Below, one piece after another: positions 5,798 through 14,724 of a DNA stretch of 64,000 nt; within the stretch, counting starts at the first letter, position 1, and the number at the start of each line of letters is the position of its first letter. Source of the DNA: Clostridia bacterium (GTDB taxonomy: Bacteria > Bacillota > Clostridia > Oscillospirales > CAG-272); contig JAFTSU010000002.1 in the NCBI GenBank assembly GCA_017467105.1, forward strand, positions 130,481-194,480, read 5' to 3'. Made by a program: the position numbers and the translations under genes. The notes below the pieces were generated by a model that was not told where the DNA came from, did no database searches, and worked only from the letters and a program-made list of their open reading frames with translations.

Positions 5798-7492
5798 ATG
5801 ATTAAAGAAAAGACGAAAAAAGACAGAAATACAAAGCTTCGCATAATTCCGCTTGGCGGACTTGGCGAGGTAGGAAAAAATATGACCGTTATCGAGTACG
5901 GAAATGACATAGTCGTGATCGATTGCGGTATGGGATTTCCCGATAAGGATATGCCGGGTGTAGATCTTGTAATGCCCGATATTTCTTATTTGATAAAAAA
6001 CGCGGAAAAGATAAGAGGCGTTCTGATCACTCACGGTCACGAGGATCATATCGGAGCTGTTCCTTATCTCTTAAGGCAAATAAACGTACCGATCTACGGA
6101 ACCAGACTTTCTCTCGGAATAATAGAGGGTAAGCTTGACGAGGATCCTCCTGAATATTATCCGGAGCTTTACACCGTGGAAGCCGGAGATACTGTAAATC
6201 TAGGAGTATTTAAGGCTGAGTTCGTTCACGTAAATCACTCAATAGCCGATGCCTGTGCCATAGCGCTGAAAACACCTGTTGGAACGGTATTCCATACAGG
6301 AGACTTCAAGCTTGACGTTTCGCCTATCGACGATAAAATGATAGATCTTACAAGAATCGGTGAAATAGGAAAGAGCGGTGTGGAAATATTACTTTGCGAA
6401 TCCACAAACGCAGAGAGAGCAGGCTTTACACCGTCCGAGAGAACGGTAGGATCATCTCTTGAAAGAATATTCGCGCAGTATAGCGATAAGCGACTTATAA
6501 TTGCGACCTTCTCTTCAAACGTTCACAGAGTACAGCAAATAATCAACGCCAGCGCGCGCCACGGCAGAAAGGTGGCAATAATCGGCAGAAGCATGGTCAA
6601 TATAATCGGAGCAGCGCTGGAGCTTGGATATATGGAGCTGCCCGACGGAGTACTTATAGACATATCTGAAATAAAAAAATACCGTCAGAACGAAATAACC
6701 CTTATAACCACAGGCAGCCAGGGTGAGCCTATGTCGGCTCTGTACAGAATAGCCTTTGGCGCTCACGATAAGATAAAGGTTACCTCAAACGACGTGGTAG
6801 TTCTCTCCTCCAGCGCAATTCCCGGTAATGAAAAGCTTGTCGGAAGTATTATAAACGCACTTGTTGAGAGCGGAGTCAAGGTAGTTAACGATTCTACCGA
6901 GGAGATACACGTATCCGGACACGCCTGTCGGGAGGAGCTGAAGCTGATGATGGCTCTGACAAGACCAAAATATTTTATGCCCGTTCACGGCGAGGCGCGT
7001 CATCTTAACGCAAACCGCGAGCTTGCTGAATTTATGGGTATTCCATCAAATAATATTTTCGTATCGGAGATAGGTAAGGTTCTGGAGATAGATAAAAAGA
7101 GCGCGAAATTCTCAGGTACTGTTCCGTCAGGAAACGTTCTGGTTGACGGACTTGGAGTTGGAGATATAGGCAGCGTGGTTCTTCGCGACAGAAAGCATCT
7201 TTCCGAGGATGGACTTGTGATAGTAGCCTTGACTCTGGATAACGAGGGATTTATACTCTCAGGACCTGATATCGTATCAAGAGGCTTCGTATACGTCAAG
7301 GAGTCGGGAGATCTTCTCAGAGAGGCAAGATCTGTTGTAAGCTCAACGGTTGAAAAAATGCTATCCGGTAAGTCGAGAAAAAATAAGGATCTGAACACCG
7401 TGAGAACTCAGATCAAGGAGGATTTAGCAAAGTTTATTTACAAGGAAACCAAGCGCCGACCTATGATACTCTCGGTTATTATGAGTGTGTAA
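5798..7492 (+). CDS. rnj: Ribonuclease J (metallo-beta-lactamase / beta-CASP)
   Basis: HGHEDHIG motif, RIIPLGGLGEVGKNM N-terminus, 564 aa typical of RNase J. Confidence 0.93.
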   Translation: MIKEKTKKDRNTKLRIIPLGGLGEVGKNMTVIEYGNDIVVIDCGMGFPDKDMPGVDLVMPDISYLIKNAEKIRGVLITHGHEDHIGAVPYLLRQINVPIYGTRLSLGIIEGKLDEDPPEYYPELYTVEAGDTVNLGVFKAEFVHVNHSIADACAIALKTPVGTVFHTGDFKLDVSPIDDKMIDLTRIGEIGKSGVEILLCESTNAERAGFTPSERTVGSSLERIFAQYSDKRLIIATFSSNVHRVQQIINASARHGRKVAIIGRSMVNIIGAALELGYMELPDGVLIDISEIKKYRQNEITLITTGSQGEPMSALYRIAFGAHDKIKVTSNDVVVLSSSAIPGNEKLVGSIINALVESGVKVVNDSTEEIHVSGHACREELKLMMALTRPKYFMPVHGEARHLNANRELAEFMGIPSNNIFVSEIGKVLEIDKKSAKFSGTVPSGNVLVDGLGVGDIGSVVLRDRKHLSEDGLVIVALTLDNEGFILSGPDIVSRGFVYVKESGDLLREARSVVSSTVEKMLSGKSRKNKDLNTVRTQIKEDLAKFIYKETKRRPMILSVIMSV

Positions 7493-7530
7493 TTTAATTA
7501 AAGATAATATTATAACTGTTTAACTCAATA

Positions 7531-7580
7531 AAAAAACACCGAATTTGTAAGTTTAAGTTTACAAAAACGGTGTTTTTTAT
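7531..7580. terminator. Bidirectional intrinsic terminator between rnj and the convergent 183-aa gene
   Basis: AAAACACCG...CGGTGTTTT stem with an inner TTTGTAA/TTACAAA stem. A-run upstream and T-run downstream. Confidence 0.75.
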
Positions 7581-7581
7581 T

Positions 7582-8133
7582 TTATATCAAGATATTGTTT
7601 ATCAGAGATAGTAGCTCCGGCATAATGATAATTATACTTGTAAATGCAATGAAATAAAGCAGACAAAGCAGTATTGTATTTATTACGGTAACGGAATTGT
7701 ATGATTCGATTATCCGTGCCGGCTCGAGATTATCCTTAGATATATAAAGCTTTGCGGTTTTATAATCCACTCTTTTTTCTTTATACTTTTTATCCTTGAT
7801 CTTCTCTATATACTCGTCATAGGAAAGCTTCTCCTCCCCAACGACAGAAACCAGCTTTTTCAGCCTTGTCTCTCCTGAAAGCTCCAGCTTTACTAATGGA
7901 GAGGATATCCTCATTTCCTCAAGCGTTCTCGCGCTTTCCTCACTTAACGCCTCGTACCTCAGCAGCTTTTTAACCGTATAAATCAGAAGTCCTCTTTTAA
8001 TATTTGTGATAACGGTTGCCAAGATCAATCCGACGAGCACCACAATTAAGAGCTTATTTATCTCCAGATCGAAGCCTATATTTTCATAGTCGTTCAGATT
8101 GATATTAAGGTATTTATTGAATATATTTGTCAA
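7582..8133 (-). CDS. Hypothetical membrane protein (two predicted TM segments)
   Basis: 183-aa ORF with TTG start, AGGGGAA RBS and TM helices near both ends. No family recognised. Confidence 0.55.
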   Translation of the reverse strand: MTNIFNKYLNINLNDYENIGFDLEINKLLIVVLVGLILATVITNIKRGLLIYTVKKLLRYEALSEESARTLEEMRISSPLVKLELSGETRLKKLVSVVGEEKLSYDEYIEKIKDKKYKEKRVDYKTAKLYISKDNLEPARIIESYNSVTVINTILLCLLYFIAFTSIIIIMPELLSLINNILI

Positions 8134-8280: not shown

Positions 8281-9174
8281 TTAAATCTCGTCAAGAAATG
8301 CCTTGCCGCAGATCAGAGTAATAAGATCGTCAAGGTCGTCGTTATCCTCGTAGGAGAGGGTCAGAGTTTTTCTCTTGCCCTTCCCTTCTATCCTTACCTT
8401 TCTGCCAAGATGAGATTGCATACGCAGCTCAAGCTCACGGAAGTAGTCAATGAGAGGAAGCTCCTCTTCCTCGTCTTTATTAGCCTTCTTTGGCTTGTTC
8501 ATACGCTTTACCTCCTCCTCAAGCACTCTGACGGAGAGATCCTCCTCAACGGCGCGCTGAGCCAGAAGTATCATAGAATCGCGGCTTTTAAGTCCGAGAA
8601 TAGTTCTCGCGTGGCCGGAGCTTAATTCCTTTGATGCAACGAGGGTCAGTACCTCGTCGGGAAGATCAAGGAGTCTGAGAGTGTTAGCAATAGCGCTACG
8701 GCTTTTGCCAACCTTAACGGAAAGCTCCTCCTGGGTCATATCAAATTCCTCAGCGAGAGACTTGTATGCCATAGCCTCCTCCAGAGGATTAAGGTCCTCG
8801 CGCTGAAGATTTTCTATAAGTGCGATCTGAGCAGTCTTTCTGTCATCTCTGTCCAGGACGATGGCGGGTATCTCGGTAAGTCCGGCAATCTTCGACGCGC
8901 GGAAGCGGCGCTCGCCCGCAATTATCTGATATCTGCCGTCACCGTATTCTCGGACCAGAATAGGCTGAAGCAAGCCGTTTTCTACTATTGAATCGGCAAG
9001 CTGCTCCAGAGCCTCCTTATCAAAATACTTTCTCGGCTGATCACTCTTGGGATCGACCATAGATATTTTCAGATGGGAGATCTTGTCCTCTGAGTGACTT
9101 ACCTCCTCTGTGATAGCGTTATCGAGAAAAATTGCATCCAGACCTCTGCCAAGTCCGCTGTTTTTCTTTGCCAT
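8281..9174 (-). CDS. parB: Chromosome partitioning protein ParB/Spo0J
   Basis: GERRFRA (CTP-binding box), HTH region SVKVGKSRSAIANTLRLL, GGAGGA RBS upstream. Confidence 0.93.
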   Translation of the reverse strand: MAKKNSGLGRGLDAIFLDNAITEEVSHSEDKISHLKISMVDPKSDQPRKYFDKEALEQLADSIVENGLLQPILVREYGDGRYQIIAGERRFRASKIAGLTEIPAIVLDRDDRKTAQIALIENLQREDLNPLEEAMAYKSLAEEFDMTQEELSVKVGKSRSAIANTLRLLDLPDEVLTLVASKELSSGHARTILGLKSRDSMILLAQRAVEEDLSVRVLEEEVKRMNKPKKANKDEEEELPLIDYFRELELRMQSHLGRKVRIEGKGKRKTLTLSYEDNDDLDDLITLICGKAFLDEI

Positions 9175-9301
9175 TATTGCTGTCCTCCGTAAGACTTATA
9201 AAAATAGAAGCGCCACGAAAAGCGGCGATATTTAACCGGGTTGTGTAAAAATGACGGTGAAATGATCACGTGTAAAAAATATTTTTGAAAAGATAAACGA
9301 C

Positions 9302-9466
9302 TGTGGAAAAGTAAACGTAATATGCGGTTAAGTTTCCACACCTAAGAAAAAACGCAAAAACCCACACCACGTAAGGAAAAATCTAAGGTTTTTAAAAATT
9401 AGAATGTGGAAAATCAACTTCAAACTCACAAGTTTTCCACACTATTCACATTTAAAATGTGGAAAA
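9302..9466. promoter_or_regulatory. DnaA-box cluster in the parB-parA spacer
   Basis: TGTGGAAAA at 9302, 9405 and 9458; TTTTCCACA at 9433; GTTTCCACA at 9332; CTATTCACA at 9442. The first four are one mismatch from TTATCCACA/TGTGGATAA. A further TGTGGGTAA is at 9793-9801. Confidence 0.7.
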
Positions 9467-9825
9467 CTTTCCGACACGCCTTTGTTTTGCTTTAATATAA
9501 AAACTATTAAAGTGGGGCGTAGTTATCAAATTGTTATGTTTTCACACCTGTAAATATATATAATAAACCACATTTATAATTAATTAAATCAAAAAAATAT
9601 CAAAAAACAATAAAAAGTGGGGGGTGATATTTGTGATAATTAAGAAAAATGTTACGTGTATAATGCTGATATTAGTGTTTTTTATGTAAAGACTGTATTT
9701 TTTAACAAAGTGGGGAATTTAACCCTAAATAGATTAAACTAATATGAATAATTAAAGAATAAAATTGATAATTGGTTAAAAAATCAATTCAATGTGGGTA
9801 ACTGTATACAGAACTCAATGTTTTA

Positions 9826-10590
9826 TTAAATACGAAGCATAAGCTCCTTGGCAACAGCCGCGTATTCAAGCGAGCCCTTGCCGTAAGGATCGTGATAGCA
9901 TATAGGCTCGCCATAACCCGGAGCCTCTGAAATACGAACCGTACGGGAGATAGGAACCTTGAAAAGCTTATCCTGATAGTACTTTTTCAGCTCCGCAACC
10001 ACCTGACCCGTAAGGGTGAGTCTGCCGTTGTACATTGTAAGCAGAATTCCCACTATCTGCAGAGACGGGTTGTATAGTGATCTTATCTTTTTTATGGTGT
10101 TCATAAGCTGCGACATACCCTCCAGCGAGTAGAACTCACACTGCATAGGTATAACGACTCCGTCAGATACAGTCAGAGCCTTTACGGTCAGCATTCCCAA
10201 CGACGGTGGGCAGTCGATAAATATGTAGTCAAAATCATCCTTTATGGAGTCGAGCGCGATCTCTGTAAATCTGAGCTTATCGTCCTCAAGGTCATATAGC
10301 TCAAGCTCTGCGCCTGCCAGATCGATAGTAGCGGGAACGACCCAAAGGTTTTTAAAGTTTGATTTAACGATCGTGTCCTTTATATCGCTTCTGCCGATGA
10401 TAACGTCGTAGATGGTGCTTTTAATTTTTGATTTTGATATGCCGAGACCGCTGGTAGCGTTGCCCTGGGGGTCCATATCTATCATCAGCACCTTTTTGCC
10501 TTTATTAGCGATCTGAGCTGATATATTTACGCAAGAGGTGGTCTTGCCAACTCCGCCCTTCTGATTTGAAAAGGAAACGACCTTTGCCAT
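9826..10590 (-). CDS. parA: Chromosome partitioning ATPase ParA/Soj
   Basis: Deviant Walker A KGGVGKTT. ATG 10590 is preferred over TTG 10602 because GGAGG lies 5 nt upstream. Confidence 0.93.
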   Translation of the reverse strand: MAKVVSFSNQKGGVGKTTSCVNISAQIANKGKKVLMIDMDPQGNATSGLGISKSKIKSTIYDVIIGRSDIKDTIVKSNFKNLWVVPATIDLAGAELELYDLEDDKLRFTEIALDSIKDDFDYIFIDCPPSLGMLTVKALTVSDGVVIPMQCEFYSLEGMSQLMNTIKKIRSLYNPSLQIVGILLTMYNGRLTLTGQVVAELKKYYQDKLFKVPISRTVRISEAPGYGEPICYHDPYGKGSLEYAAVAKELMLRI

Positions 10591-10973
10591 TTTTTCCTCC
10601 AAGAAATTTTGATGATTTTTAATGCTTGTGTATTGAATTTTTCACGTACGTGAGCGAGAAAAATAAATATTTTAAATAATAAATTAGCGGCTAAATAAAA
10701 TCCGGCGGGGTGATAATTGTCGTAGAGCTTTGCGTGTCCGAGTGGGTGTCTATACGTCCGAGCTCCTTTACCAAAACCGTGATCACCGGTTGATCGGAGT
10801 GAAAGGTAACCTTGGATGTCTTGGGTGTTTAAGCTTTGGTTAGAAATTAAGAATTTAGCCGACATTAGTTCACATTCTGATATGCCGTGCGGCTTTCAAT
10901 CTTATTTTACCGCGCAGAGTTGCTTTGCATTTCACTACGCGCTGCTTTAAGCTGCGAAGCACGCCTTACAGTA

Positions 10974-11165
10974 CTACCCTGCTTCATATCTGTTGGTAAT
11001 AATAACCCGCCTTGGAACTCTTCGTAACGCTACCCTGCTTCAGATCTCCCGATAGTATTGCTTTGGAACACTTAGTAACGTTGCACAGATTCAGTGATCT
11101 TAGTGGTGCTACCCTGCTTCATATCTATTGGTAATGGAAACCTGCTTTGAAACGCTCTAAACAAT
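10974..11165 (+). repeat. Three degenerate direct repeats (56- and 79-bp periods) with an 18-nt conserved core
   Basis: CTACCCTGCTTCATATCT at 10974 and 11109, CTACCCTGCTTCAGATCT at 11030. Each is followed by a GGTAAT/GATAGT..CTTTGGAAC-like segment. Confidence 0.8.
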
Positions 11166-12679
11166 TCTGTTGAATTATGTTTTTACTCCGAATACTTCTG
11201 TATTGTGGTTCGTTTTTTACGGTTTCGCCAGTTTTTATCTTTTTCACGTCTCCCATGAGCTTTATGTAAACCTTCCCCGTGCTGCCGGCTTTCGATATAG
11301 TCTGCTTGAATACTTGATGCGGATGAAAAACTAATAGGTCGTTCTTTCGCTCTGTAAAGATAATTTATAGACGTGATAGTGTATCTGATCGAAAAAAACA
11401 CCGTAATGCGCTAAAAAAGGCAAAATTTCGCGTCAGAGAGGGTGTATAGCCTCAACAATAGGACTGTTTTTGTAAAAATCGGTTAATTTCGGCTGTTAAA
11501 ATTAAGCAGTAACGCATTTTTAGGGTGTAATGAAATAAAGCATTTAAAGCCTGCGCTAAGGAATACAAGAAGATTAATTTATACTGTAGTCTGACAACGT
11601 GAATGATACCAAAAATTACCAAGATACACTTACCGCTTTTTTAATTAACGTTTTGATATACTAATTTATGTTATTTGTGTTAAAATCATAAAAAACCATC
11701 TTTTTGAGCAAAATTAAAATTAAATAAAATAATCAAGCGGCAAACAAAGACGAAAGTTATGTGGCGCTGCAAAATAAGGATTAAAAGCCGAAAAAGCGGG
11801 ACGGATCTGATTGATAAGCAATGAGTAACATGCGTGAGTTGATTTATATTAATCTTCGGCGTTATTAATTAAATGAAACCGTACCAAATCAAGAATAAAT
11901 CGGCTAAAAAACAAACCGTAGCGATTTTGGCTCTTACACTTCCCTGTTTAAGCATACGTCTGAAGGCTTGAAGTATAAATAAGACCAGAAGCCGAGAATA
12001 GAACCGGAGAACCAAAATTTATATCTATAAATAAAATATTTTAAATAATATAAAATATATAAAATTGATATTATCAAATAATATTATACTATAAAGGACG
12101 AAAATTGTCAACTATAACAGTACTTATTTACTTAAAAAATGATAGAAAAAAGTAGTTCTTTTAAAAGAGTCGGAGATGTATCTCGTGATCAAAAAAGAGG
12201 AATAATTAAAAAAATATTTAAAGCATAATAATAATAATTAGTCGAATGATGCTATAAATAAATGTTAATCACGTCAGAGAAGATCGGAAAAAATATATAC
12301 TTAAACCTCTGGAATACAAAAAATGATAAACAAGCTAAATATACCATTATTAGTGTATAAAAATAGATTCATACACAATATATTGTGCCTTTTTACATTA
12401 ATTATGATGCAAAATATTATAAAATTGATTAAACAACCTAAAGTTCCCTAAAAGTTATGTTTGGTTTACAAAAAATAACCTGAGCAAGAACAAAATACAA
12501 TCTTTTAAAATATTTGTAATAATTATACGAGCGAGAAATATATATAAAAATTTGAATATAATCTATAACGACCCACTCTTGTCTCATACGACTCTAGTAT
12601 AACAAAAATTGGTGTGAGTATTCGGTGTTTAAAATAAGATGACTGAGACTATAAATCAATAAATTCATCTTAAAAGCTA

Positions 12680-12695
12680 TGTTTCACGTGAAACA
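12680..12695. promoter_or_regulatory. parS: parS site 1 (ParB/Spo0J binding site)
   Basis: TGTTTCACGTGAAACA, a perfect 16-bp palindrome one base from the B. subtilis parS TGTTCCACGTGAAACA. Confidence 0.85.
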
Positions 12696-12734
12696 TAAAC
12701 AATAAATGATAAATATGTGAAGTTTAAGCTCCGA

Positions 12735-12750
12735 TGTTTCACGTGAAACA
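12735..12750. promoter_or_regulatory. parS: parS site 2
   Basis: TGTTTCACGTGAAACA. Confidence 0.85.
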
Positions 12751-12793
12751 CCAAAAATACCTATAAAAGTATTATTTTTTATCAAAATTGTAT

Positions 12794-12809
12794 TGTTCCA
12801 CGTGAAACA
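12794..12809. promoter_or_regulatory. parS: parS site 3
   Basis: TGTTCCACGTGAAACA, identical to the B. subtilis consensus. Confidence 0.88.
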
Positions 12810-12861
12810 ATTAAATGTATTCATTTTGAATTTTTTTGATTATAGCTAACGAAATAACTAT

Positions 12862-12877
12862 TGTTTCACGTGAAACA
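12862..12877. promoter_or_regulatory. parS: parS site 4
   Basis: TGTTTCACGTGAAACA. Confidence 0.85.
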
Positions 12878-12925
12878 GAACACGGAACGCTCATTTTATG
12901 CTTATATTTATTAAAAATTGCCAAA

Positions 12926-12941
12926 CGTTTCACGTGAAACA
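12926..12941. promoter_or_regulatory. parS: parS site 5
   Basis: CGTTTCACGTGAAACA; only the outermost base differs. Confidence 0.8.
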
Positions 12942-13893
12942 ATAGAAATTATCGAAAATATCTTAAAATATATGCTAATAATATTGTTTTACATAAAAAT
13001 TAACAAAAATGATACAGCACATCTAATAAGGAGGAATAAAATTAATATTTTAAATATATAGTACATAAATCCTTAAAATACTAGTCTGATTAATCTTAAA
13101 TTGATTGATTTATTAAAATAATAATAATGAAATATCAAGGATAAATACATATAACAATTAGCAATATATAATAAAACACCTGTCAAACCAAAGTATGTAT
13201 TTAATATTTTATAAAATAATATAAATATTATTAATTATATGAATATTGAGTGATAATTATCAAAAAATATGCTGTGAAACAGAGGGTTATTATTAAAAAA
13301 TGGAAAAAAATACCAATTTGCTTTTCTCGGGTGATTTATTCACAAAAAATAATGAAATTTGAATAATTTGTTAGTATTTTATACGAAATATCATTTAAAA
13401 ATATGTAAAATATTACTTTTATTACCTGTAATAATTTGTAAAATTCGTAATTAATACTAATTATATTTTTTGAAAATTATAAATAATTAGTGAATAAATA
13501 TTTACAGATGTGTATAAATATACAATCGGTATTGTAATGTTTTTGATACGGTATTTAATTATTGTCTTCTTTAAGCTTGAATATTTTTAGATGTTGAACT
13601 TCTTTTTTTGTTTTTTGAATGGTACTTTCAATATCTTTCTTGTTTTGGTTTTTGTTTATTTGTGCAGGCTGTCGTTTTTTTGTAGTGTATCAGCTTTGAA
13701 AAATTATCAACTTTATCTGATCCTCTTAGTACCGAAACGTATAAAGCTTTATTACGCTCAAATATCGGGCTTTGCTTGCGTGTGGCTCGTTTGTCATGTT
13801 TATTATTAACATTGGATAAAGTATTTTCTAAATTATACAAGCCGTAGTTTAAGTAAATTATTGTTTGTATAGCGATGTATGTTTTAATTAAAA

Positions 13894-13911
13894 TGTAAAT
13901 AATTATTTACA
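13894..13911. promoter_or_regulatory. Perfect 18-bp palindrome TGTAAATAATTATTTACA (candidate operator, factor unknown)
   Basis: Exact inverted repeat 9+9 with no spacer. Related copies are at 22043 and 23296. Confidence 0.4.
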
Positions 13912-14640
13912 ATTTGATTTTTTGGGGTATACCCGTGTAAAGTTTTATTTGTTTTGTTGGTTTTTTTAATTTTGTTTAACTGTTAATTTTTACTGTTTAT
14001 ACATTCGTGATTATTATATAAACTGTCTTTGGTTTTAAACGTACTTATCTAGCTGCGTCGCTTTTATCTGTCCGGTTCTTTTTCTGACCTTGAGAACGGG
14101 ACCTATTTATATATGCCATTTTTCCTTGCGTTTAAAGGCGTTATTAAAAAATGAAGCTGGATCTTCAGATCGGGACACTTTGATAACACGCACAGGTGAA
14201 TCTCGGAGGATCCGGATAGGTAGATTACTTTTACTTGTTTTTTTATCAGCATATTTCGTCTACCCTTTTTTGATATATTTTTCTGCTTCTTGTATTTATT
14301 CAACGACTTTTTATGTATCATTATATGAATAAATATTCTATTTTGTTAATTATAAAAAATTGTGTTTATTTCCTTTGTTGAAAAATAATATGCATATGCT
14401 GTTATATTCTGTTTTTTTATTAATTTCGTACTTTTTCTGTTTAATGTTTATATTCATCCACTTGTGATTTTCGTTAATATAATCTTTGCTATTTTTTCGT
14501 ATTTAGCTTTGATTTGGCAGGGAAGGGTAGCGCGTGTATAAATTCTTTTATTATTGCCTTTTTTTATAAGGAAAATATTTTTTCTTTCTTTAAAGGCTAT
14601 AAACACTTAATAATTTAATATAATTATTAAAAACTAACAG

Positions 14641-14697
14641 AATAAAAAATACACCCGTACAGATATTCTCTAAGAGAGATACCGTATAGGTGTATTT
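14641..14697 (-). terminator. Intrinsic terminator downstream of dnaJ
   Basis: Long imperfect hairpin (ATACACC...GGTGTAT outer stem) followed on the minus strand by TTTTTATT. Confidence 0.7.
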
Positions 14698-14724
14698 AAA
14701 TAATTATTAATTTAGATGTTTATA

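Follow-up and report, generated by a model that had tools for sequence, protein, structure and literature searches.

A parS array in a 4.1-kb gene-free, AT-rich tract between parA and dnaJ of a Clostridia bacterium

An origin-proximal position is the normal place for a chromosomal centromere, and the parS sites known from the ParABS systems of Caulobacter crescentus, Corynebacterium glutamicum, Pseudomonas aeruginosa and Bacillus subtilis are set in ordinary genes or between them. At parS, ParB-CTP clamps are loaded and then slide (PMC7053999); proteins bound to the DNA are roadblocks that lower ParB density beyond them (PMC7725951), and ParB at intergenic parS represses adjacent promoters in P. 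aeruginosa (PMC7022226, PMC5521831). Here we analyze a 64-kb stretch of a Clostridia bacterium genome (the window; coordinates refer to its + strand unless a related locus, numbered with an L, is given), in which parA and dnaJ are separated by a 4.1-kb tract that a preliminary description had singled out as a gene desert. Unlike the sites of the systems above, the five parS of this locus lie midway in gene-free AT-rich DNA with mirror A/T asymmetry, a setting that recurs across the clade. The core parts, a parS cluster and a parAB promoter, are ordinary; the size of the tract, its layout without sequence conservation and its recurrence in the clade are noteworthy. We favor, with a probability of roughly 0.55, the explanation that the tract is a chromosomal centromere and parAB control region expanded by fast-evolving filler DNA.

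The array was delimited with the 16-bp palindrome TGTTNCACGTGAAACA, which is matched with no or one mismatch by five sites starting at 12680, 12735, 12794, 12862 and 12926 (start-to-start spacing of 55, 59, 68 and 64 bp) and by no others in the 64 kb, 0.04 being expected by chance. A scan for half-parS motifs added just one further site in the tract. As the preliminary description had placed it, the array is nearly central, its midpoint (12810) falling ~150 bp from that of the tract. The window starts in gyrB-gyrA, and a contig of the same genome (L167) has dnaA-dnaN-recF-remB-gyrB-gyrA directly to the left of it; the array is origin-proximal, because this dnaA cluster, in the same genome, lies only ~16-17 kb away. 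Together, the parS consensus, the cognate ParB and ParA encoded nearby and the origin-proximal position identify a predicted chromosomal ParABS centromere, at which ParB would be expected to bind in vivo.

Several lines of evidence bear on the coding status of the tract. It was first reported to hold no credible open reading frame (ORF), only six of 70-112 aa being listed, and this stands: the longest ORF has 112 aa, and period-3 power ranges from z = -1.4 to 2.1 in every 450-bp tile starting between 10450 and 14500, compared with values mostly of 5-23 in parB, parA, dnaJ and dnaK. The segment 10603-11400, of normal GC content, is likewise devoid of codon periodicity, indicating that it is non-coding too; a TTG candidate start 5' of the parA ATG lies at 10602. 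Recoding of TGA or TAG as sense produced no tract ORF above 111 aa, and recoding of TAA opened longer frames on both strands and in several frames together, as expected of AT-rich DNA. Searches of the tract revealed no tRNA, no Rfam family at the gathering score and nothing meaningful in Rfam at E ≤ 5, no Pfam or PHROGs match to its longest stop-free stretches, and no transposase or integrase signal in these two collections, all in keeping with the earlier statement that no tRNA, rRNA or transposase or integrase remnant was recognized. Further, blastn against phage and plasmid collections gave no match, a tandem-repeat search returned nothing of note, and parS was the only match when the tract was compared by blastn and tblastn with 80 related loci. 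The largest other spacer in the window measures 743 bp, within the range of 3-750 bp originally given.

ENA ERZ27256821 and Logan SRR12529336, two independent samples processed with different assemblers, both match the interval at 100% identity, and the only five mismatches of the latter all fall at the contig end inside dnaK. The tract is therefore not an assembly artefact, the possibility that the preliminary description had named as able to explain it away. A metagenome scan for closer strains found none above 91% ParA identity. Collectively, these data confirm that the 4.1-kb gene-free AT-rich tract is real and non-coding.

We then turned to the closest sister species. A DnaJ search returned proteins 88-98% identical, and the contigs of four of these (88-92%; L163, L164, L165 and L166) were compared with the window. 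Gene-free DNA reaches parA in both L163 (4.65 kb) and L164 (3.87 kb); in L165 and L166, 2.7 and 2.1 kb of it, respectively, precede the contig end. All four carry, after dnaJ and on the opposite strand, an intact His_Phos_1 gene (L163 11232-11885, L164 1605-2255, L165 2125-2781, L166 2579-3235), which is missing from the window genome, tblastn having detected no His_Phos remnant in the tract or elsewhere in the window. In the comparison with orthologous intervals, suggested at the outset as a way to tell conserved length from replacement by genes, the length and layout of the gene-free DNA are kept in L163 and L164, and intact His_Phos is also present in the sister species.

Coding DNA is 80-85% identical between the window and these species, whereas the tract can be aligned only at parS, the promoter and one 160-bp block. 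Read from dnaJ to parA, the shared layout consists of an A-rich arm, the conserved block with the skew change point, the parS array, a T-rich arm and, finally, the parA side. The A-rich arm extends over ~1-1.2 kb (strongly A-rich; in L163, up to ~1.9 kb when measured to the change point), and the change point is found at the block in the window and between block and array in the sister species. The array comprises 5-6 parS and is followed by a T-rich arm of ~1.2 kb, which holds the promoter in L163 and L164. In the same two species, parA is adjoined by 0.4-1 kb of DNA of 40-47% GC that contains direct repeats peculiar to each species, and GC skew mirrors AT skew, rendering the strand that leaves the flip T+G rich on both sides. 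In the nearest species, the parS array is flanked on either side by ~1.3-2.3 kb without genes. These comparisons show that, among sister species, the layout is kept and the sequence is not.

One of the alignable islands is the promoter P_parA (Table 1), which aligns with that of L163 amid otherwise unalignable DNA; promoter prediction identified no better candidate nearer parA. The distance from the parS array to P_parA is 568 bp, and that from P_parA to parA, 1492 nt, is the largest leader distance of 73 loci. A conserved consensus promoter located 1.49 kb upstream of parA predicts a long parAB leader. The block at the skew change point carries the motifs TGGAA-N5-TACCA (TGGTA-N5-TACCA in L165), TTATTCACA and TTCGTA-N5-TAC, as well as short inverted repeats and a DnaA-box-like 9-mer that is exact only in the window. 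The block (13297-13457) was also considered as an RNA or a small ORF, and both were rejected, since it yielded no consensus RNA structure on either strand and no conserved ORF. A sliding-window scan of the tract for fold z-scores brought out only the parS palindromes and the dnaJ terminator at z < -3, so that Rfam, fold stability and consensus structure alike do not support a structured non-coding RNA. Because of this strong terminator at 14638-14697, read-through from dnaJ gives no account of the right arm.

Table 1. Features of the parB-dnaJ region of the window
Feature	Position	Strand	Remarks
parB	8281..9174	-	Pfam ParB_N and HTH_ParB; GERRFR in translation
parA	9826..10590	-	Soj-type Walker ATPase; Pfam ParA/CbiA/AAA_31; KGGVGKTT in translation
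Whole non-coding tract	10591..14724	.	4134 bp, GC 0.29 overall; between parA ATG (10590) and dnaJ stop (14725)
GC-normal non-coding segment adjoining parA	10591..11400	.	GC 0.40-0.43; T-rich on + strand, skew -0.16
Predicted 5' leader of parAB	10591..12076	-	~1.49 kb; inferred from promoter position
Three direct repeats	10971..11160	.	Core GCTACCCTGCTTCATATCT on + strand; species-specific
A-rich arm	11400..12679	. (A-rich on + strand)	GC 0.22-0.32; holds promoter and first ~0.7 kb of inferred leader
P_parA, consensus sigma-A promoter facing parA	12083..12111	-	TTGACA-17-TATAAT; 12/12 match
Five-site parS array	12680..12941	.	TGTTTCACGTGAAACA; three sites exact, two with one base differing
Most AT-rich zone	12942..13296	.	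GC ~0.18; AAA/TTT tracts phased ~10.25 bp
Conserved non-coding block at skew change point	13297..13457	.	Alignable to L163 13325-13506, L164 4040-4155, L165 3969-4151
T-rich arm	13550..14637	. (T-rich on + strand)	Skew -0.30, weak G>C, GC 0.25-0.31
dnaJ intrinsic terminator	14638..14697	-	Hairpin then UUUUUUAUU; -24.9 kcal/mol, z = -5.2

To place the locus in its clade, 80 species-level related loci were retrieved by ParA search. They belong to a large group of uncultured Clostridia/Eubacteriales genomes, mostly from the ruminant gut and some labelled Oscillospiraceae or Ruminococcus. The order hrcA-grpE-dnaK-dnaJ, variable interval, parA-parB is widespread among them, and nearly all of the 80 have 1-7 parS in an AT-rich spacer upstream of parA. 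A TTGAC[AT]-17/18-TATAAT promoter faces parA in 74 of the 80 loci; its -35 usually follows the last parS by ~30 bp (most about 28-60 bp), and its -10 typically precedes the parA ATG by ~63 nt (usual range 32-100 nt). In 14 of 73 loci, a second consensus promoter of opposite direction is found no more than 120 bp from the distal parS, leaving the array between divergent promoters. The conserved promoter, the conserved block at the flip and these clade-wide arrays upstream of parA all go beyond the preliminary description.

Among relatives, the shortest gene-free tract measures ~0.05 kb and the longest 5.8 kb (median, 1.16 kb; 0.2-0.7 kb in compact relatives); the window tract is ~four-fold the clade median and ranks 4th of 61. 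When absence of codon periodicity was taken as the criterion for gene-free DNA (82 loci, 1.32 Mb), parS was present in all non-coding gaps of at least 3 kb (11/11) and in 23 of the 26 of at least 2 kb, the three exceptions being a parA-parB spacer, a gap adjoining a parS-bearing one and a gap in L041. The sub-spacer that is enlarged lies between array and promoter in L068, L076 and L055, between promoter and parA in L069, and in both places in the window, L163 and L062. Because different lineages have enlarged the spacer and large gaps contain parS, the enlargement is recurrent and tied to the parS locus. The dnaJ-parA interval is also a spot of gene turnover, harboring His_Phos in the sister species, a 434-aa ORF without Pfam assignment in L046 and a pair of 183-aa and 149-aa ORFs in L004. 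Contigs of relatives often end in or beside the AT-rich tract (882 bp before parA in L003, just after the parS array in L165 and L166); assemblies probably break at such tracts, and collections of metagenome-assembled genomes may contain too few of them.

Base composition further sets the tract apart. Its GC content is 0.18-0.32 from ~11400 to 14700 versus 0.45-0.55 in the flanking genes (genes ~47%), in agreement with the marked AT-richness first noticed from about 11400 onward. The abrupt strand flip that had also been noticed proved real as an asymmetry, but its position required correction. On the + strand, 860 A face 630 T between 11400 and 13400 (skew +0.154, p = 3e-9), and 278 A face 512 T between 13550 and 14640 (skew -0.296, p = 7e-17). 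The cumulative A-T maximum, which marks the skew change point, falls at 13316, and the flip is a transition zone from 13316 to 13550, slightly to the left of the 13540-13560 initially proposed. The skew of the tract is larger than coding skew. Two candidate generalizations were discarded: a flip as a general property of parS, since the ±400 bp flanks in 41 loci did not flip consistently (p = 0.76), and A-tract phasing as a trait of the tract, since it is significant there (z = 4-11) but occurs at other intergenic tiles of the window too. As a separate observation, the coding strands of dnaK and dnaJ from L003 to L082 have more C than G at third positions of codons, with skews of -0.25 (dnaK) and -0.30 (dnaJ), in either orientation, a codon-usage effect that can mimic a replication-skew switch in short windows.

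In the explanation we favor, ParB, the gene of which lies 1.4 kb away, would load on the five parS at 12680-12941 and spread from there, and parAB would be driven from the conserved sigma-A promoter at 12111-12083. The compact pair formed by parS and a promoter ~63 nt before parA in relatives implies that ParB may control its own operon. In the window species and its closest sisters, filler has accumulated at three places, namely between array and promoter (568 bp), between promoter and parA (1492 nt) and beyond the array as seen from parA (1.8 kb with the block). It would be tolerated there, and possibly favored, because the ParB partition complex covers the DNA up to ~2 kb to either side of the array. 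The filler evolves too fast to be aligned between species, yet stays gene-free and AT-rich and keeps the same mirror A/T asymmetry. A large gene-free platform for ParB spreading or condensation, as proposed at the outset, is possible and fits the comparative data: length, composition and layout persist without sequence conservation, large gaps are specific to this locus, and the nearest species have gene-free flanks. A large platform is, however, no requirement, most relatives being compact.

Several points weigh against the favored explanation. Enlargement is not universal; most relatives have arrays 100-500 bp from parA and tracts shorter than 1.5 kb, so ParABS can function without large flanks. 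The sub-spacer that expanded differs between lineages, which fits neutral accretion as well. The number of parS does correlate with tract length (rho 0.37, p = 0.003), a statistic that ignores phylogeny and is partly trivial. Finally, centromere, control region and filler do not by themselves account for the mirror A/T asymmetry. A bolder version, which we advance tentatively and consider rather unlikely, would address this last point by regarding the locus as a bacterial pericentromere. The DNA ~2 kb on each side of the array would be kept gene-free and AT-rich because the ParB complex or SMC loading works better there or silences it, and a process started at the centromere, be it outward transcription or repeated strand exposure, would imprint the mirror T+G / A+C asymmetry. 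Composition and length would then be selected and sequence not, by analogy with eukaryotic centromeres.

The alternative to be taken most seriously, although we consider it doubtful, is that the enlargement is a neutral by-product: functionless filler derived from gene loss, small insertions and strongly AT-biased mutation would persist because deletions are hard to fix near parS, promoter and parA, and only three islands would matter. The lack of sequence conservation outside parS, promoter and block, next to coding DNA that is readily aligned, speaks for it, as do the turnover of genes in the dnaJ-parA interval, the lineage-specific choice of sub-spacer and the wide range of tract lengths. 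However, 4 kb of DNA without use should be lost through the deletion bias of bacteria, but in L163 and L164 the layout persists over 4.65 and 3.87 kb past the limit of alignability, and multi-kilobase non-coding gaps are almost confined to the parS spacer in the 1.32 Mb surveyed. Moreover, the skew exceeds that of coding DNA and is kept without sequence conservation, which argues for an ongoing process or selection. Such a process might be transcription, and long AT-rich transcripts had been among the first readings offered. The arms would then be long unstructured non-coding RNAs, running outward from the flip or inward to parS, with transcription-linked mutation or RNA selection making the skew; in the outward variant, one arm would be the parA leader and the other an upstream leader on the His_Phos side. 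We judge this account unlikely. Long transcripts are nevertheless implied in part: a long parA leader is predicted by the conserved promoter, which points from near the array to parA, some relatives (14/73) have the divergent second promoter near the distal parS, the flip coincides with the conserved block in four species, and a T+G-rich strand, as found leaving the flip on both sides in L163 and L164, is a known signature of the non-template strand. Outward transcription would thus fit the T+G-rich strands and the direction of P_parA, but on the strand that is sense for parA the T-rich skew sets in ~1.2 kb ahead of P_parA, no convincing promoter can be read in the block, and no structured RNA was found in the tract. 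In addition, intra-operon spacers of the clade, which are transcribed, have a sense strand that is neutral or A/C-rich, opposite to what the outward model expects; they provide an ambiguous rule for the direction of transcription, and because of them inward transcription of A/C-rich RNAs is equally possible.

Decay of two converging gene sets, the remaining early reading, fared worse, and we regard such a pseudogene graveyard as very unlikely. In its favor, A exceeds T on what would be the sense strand, much as in coding DNA, part of the interval is occupied by intact genes in sister species, and its total length is similar to that of the gene-bearing intervals of L004, L046, L020 and L021. 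Against this, the tract shows neither residual period-3 signal nor Pfam or PHROG matches to its longest open stretches, tblastn found no match to the 80 related loci, to the four sister contigs or to His_Phos, the skew is oriented opposite to that expected from the genes that relatives carry, and the layout is common to species that still have His_Phos. A pseudogene or decayed coding region is therefore disfavored. The polarity of L163 and L164, with T+G on the strand leaving the flip, is origin-like, and two DnaA-box-like 9-mers at 13336 and 13509, together with a five-box cluster 4 kb away at 9242-9466, could point to a replication origin or secondary origin whose AT-rich flip zone unwinds, the skew arising from the forks that leave it. 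This is highly improbable, since the same genome has a standard dnaA-dnaN-recF-gyrB-gyrA cluster with an oriC-like dnaA-dnaN spacer that holds TAC repeats, AT-rich DNA, a GC cluster and a DnaA box, the GC skew of intergenic DNA is mostly positive to the left and to the right of the tract, and the apparent switch in GC skew at third codon positions is a codon-usage effect (C3>G3 in dnaK and dnaJ in either orientation). Nor does the tract look like oriC, with two loose DnaA boxes only, one of them, in the block, exact solely in the window, and no chromosome-scale strand switch. Least credible of all is a tract produced by faulty assembly or left behind by a prophage or an unannotated mobile element. 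Assembly of AT-rich DNA is difficult and contigs of relatives often break in the tract, but the two independent assemblies agree on it and equivalent tracts exist in other species; as for a relic, searches of the tract with Pfam and PHROGs, blastn against phages and plasmids and repeat detection revealed neither similarity to these elements nor any trace of a transposase or integrase, and no tandem repeats.

Other observations concern the surroundings of the array. The direct repeats beside parA have counterparts at the same place in L163 (16287-16498; 4 x 58 bp, 88-92% identity), and ~35-nt units are visible in the printed sequence of L164 at ~5950-6100, where self-BLAST found no repeat; across the three sister species, the repeats keep their position and not their sequence, and the arrays look iteron-like. 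A perfect 12-bp palindrome, TCACGTACGTGA, at ~10642-10653, ~50 nt before the parA ATG, resembles the parS core with its central ACGT doubled. On the other side of parA, the spacer to parB is unusually long in several relatives (2.6 kb in L031, 1.8 kb in L063, 1.5 kb in L006 and 1.0-1.2 kb in L071, L015 and L003), and in many relatives it holds an extra parS just after parA. Farther left, a palindrome at 7527-7583 between the RNase J gene and a 183-aa gene, 82-91% identical in L003, L083 and L163, is probably a bidirectional terminator.

DnaA boxes also occur outside the tract. At L167 5149-5509, the dnaA-dnaN spacer is oriC-like, with TTTTCCACA, CCCCC, TACTACTACTGCGACTAC and an AT-rich stretch, a module resembling the DnaA-box/GC-cluster/DnaA-trio/unwinding-element arrangement known from B. 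subtilis. Within the 651-bp parB-parA spacer of the window (9175-9825), five DnaA-box matches (four TTTTCCACA, one TTTTACACA) fall within 225 bp at 9242-9466, compared with only two boxes of this kind between dnaA and dnaN in the same genome. The parB-parA spacer is 87% identical to L003 at 9410-9470 and likewise to L083 at 9416-9468, stretches that are better conserved than the neighboring genes, and 73% identical to L163 at 9302-9470. The five matches may form a DnaA-box cluster of the type described in B. subtilis (PMC3245932), through which DnaA could be connected with par expression.

Non-coding stretches as long as 4 kb almost never persist in bacterial genomes; the exception described here sits at the segregation site and recurs in many species of one clade. 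Should the flanks be selected, the footprint of the ParB complex would shape genome architecture, and the locus would offer a handle on how far clamps travel; should they be neutral, it would mark where deletion bias fails. The displaced promoter predicts a 1.5-kb parAB leader, which is unusual and easily checked. As breakpoints of metagenome assembly, such regions are probably under-reported.

In its core, the locus matches the origin-proximal parS clusters next to parAB of C. crescentus, C. glutamicum, P. aeruginosa (parS1-4) and B. subtilis (PMC7022226), with a 16-bp palindrome that fits the Firmicute/universal consensus, several sites near parAB within ~17 kb of dnaA, a ParB with ParB_N and HTH domains and a Soj-type ParA. 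The last parS of most relatives, ~30 bp before the -35, has the geometry of an operator, reminiscent of ParB repression at the intergenic parS3 and parS4 of P. aeruginosa (PMC5521831). ParB spreading also modulates competence development in Streptococcus pneumoniae (PMC4488948), and plasmid par operons are autoregulated at a centromere that doubles as operator (PMC7022226). In relatives, a second, divergent promoter often abuts the other end of the array, again in operator geometry. Plasmid autoregulation, though, uses a DNA-binding domain of ParA that chromosomal ParA proteins lack. In the window, direct occlusion is unlikely because the promoter is 568 bp from the array, and any control would act through spreading. 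Given that spreading by ParB-CTP sliding clamps is limited by roadblocks (PMC7053999, PMC7725951, PMC9242446), parS flanked by ~2 kb of gene-free DNA could serve as a track for unhindered sliding. Known ParB footprints (about 10-20 kb) cross active genes, unlike the gene-free tract. To our knowledge, no natural gene-free ParB track has been described. Eukaryotic centromeres share no ancestry with this locus and differ from it in scale and proteins; by analogy, nonetheless, the tract may be likened to their AT-rich DNA, such as CDEII of budding yeast: function would depend on composition and length and not on sequence, and the DNA evolves fast at a conserved position.

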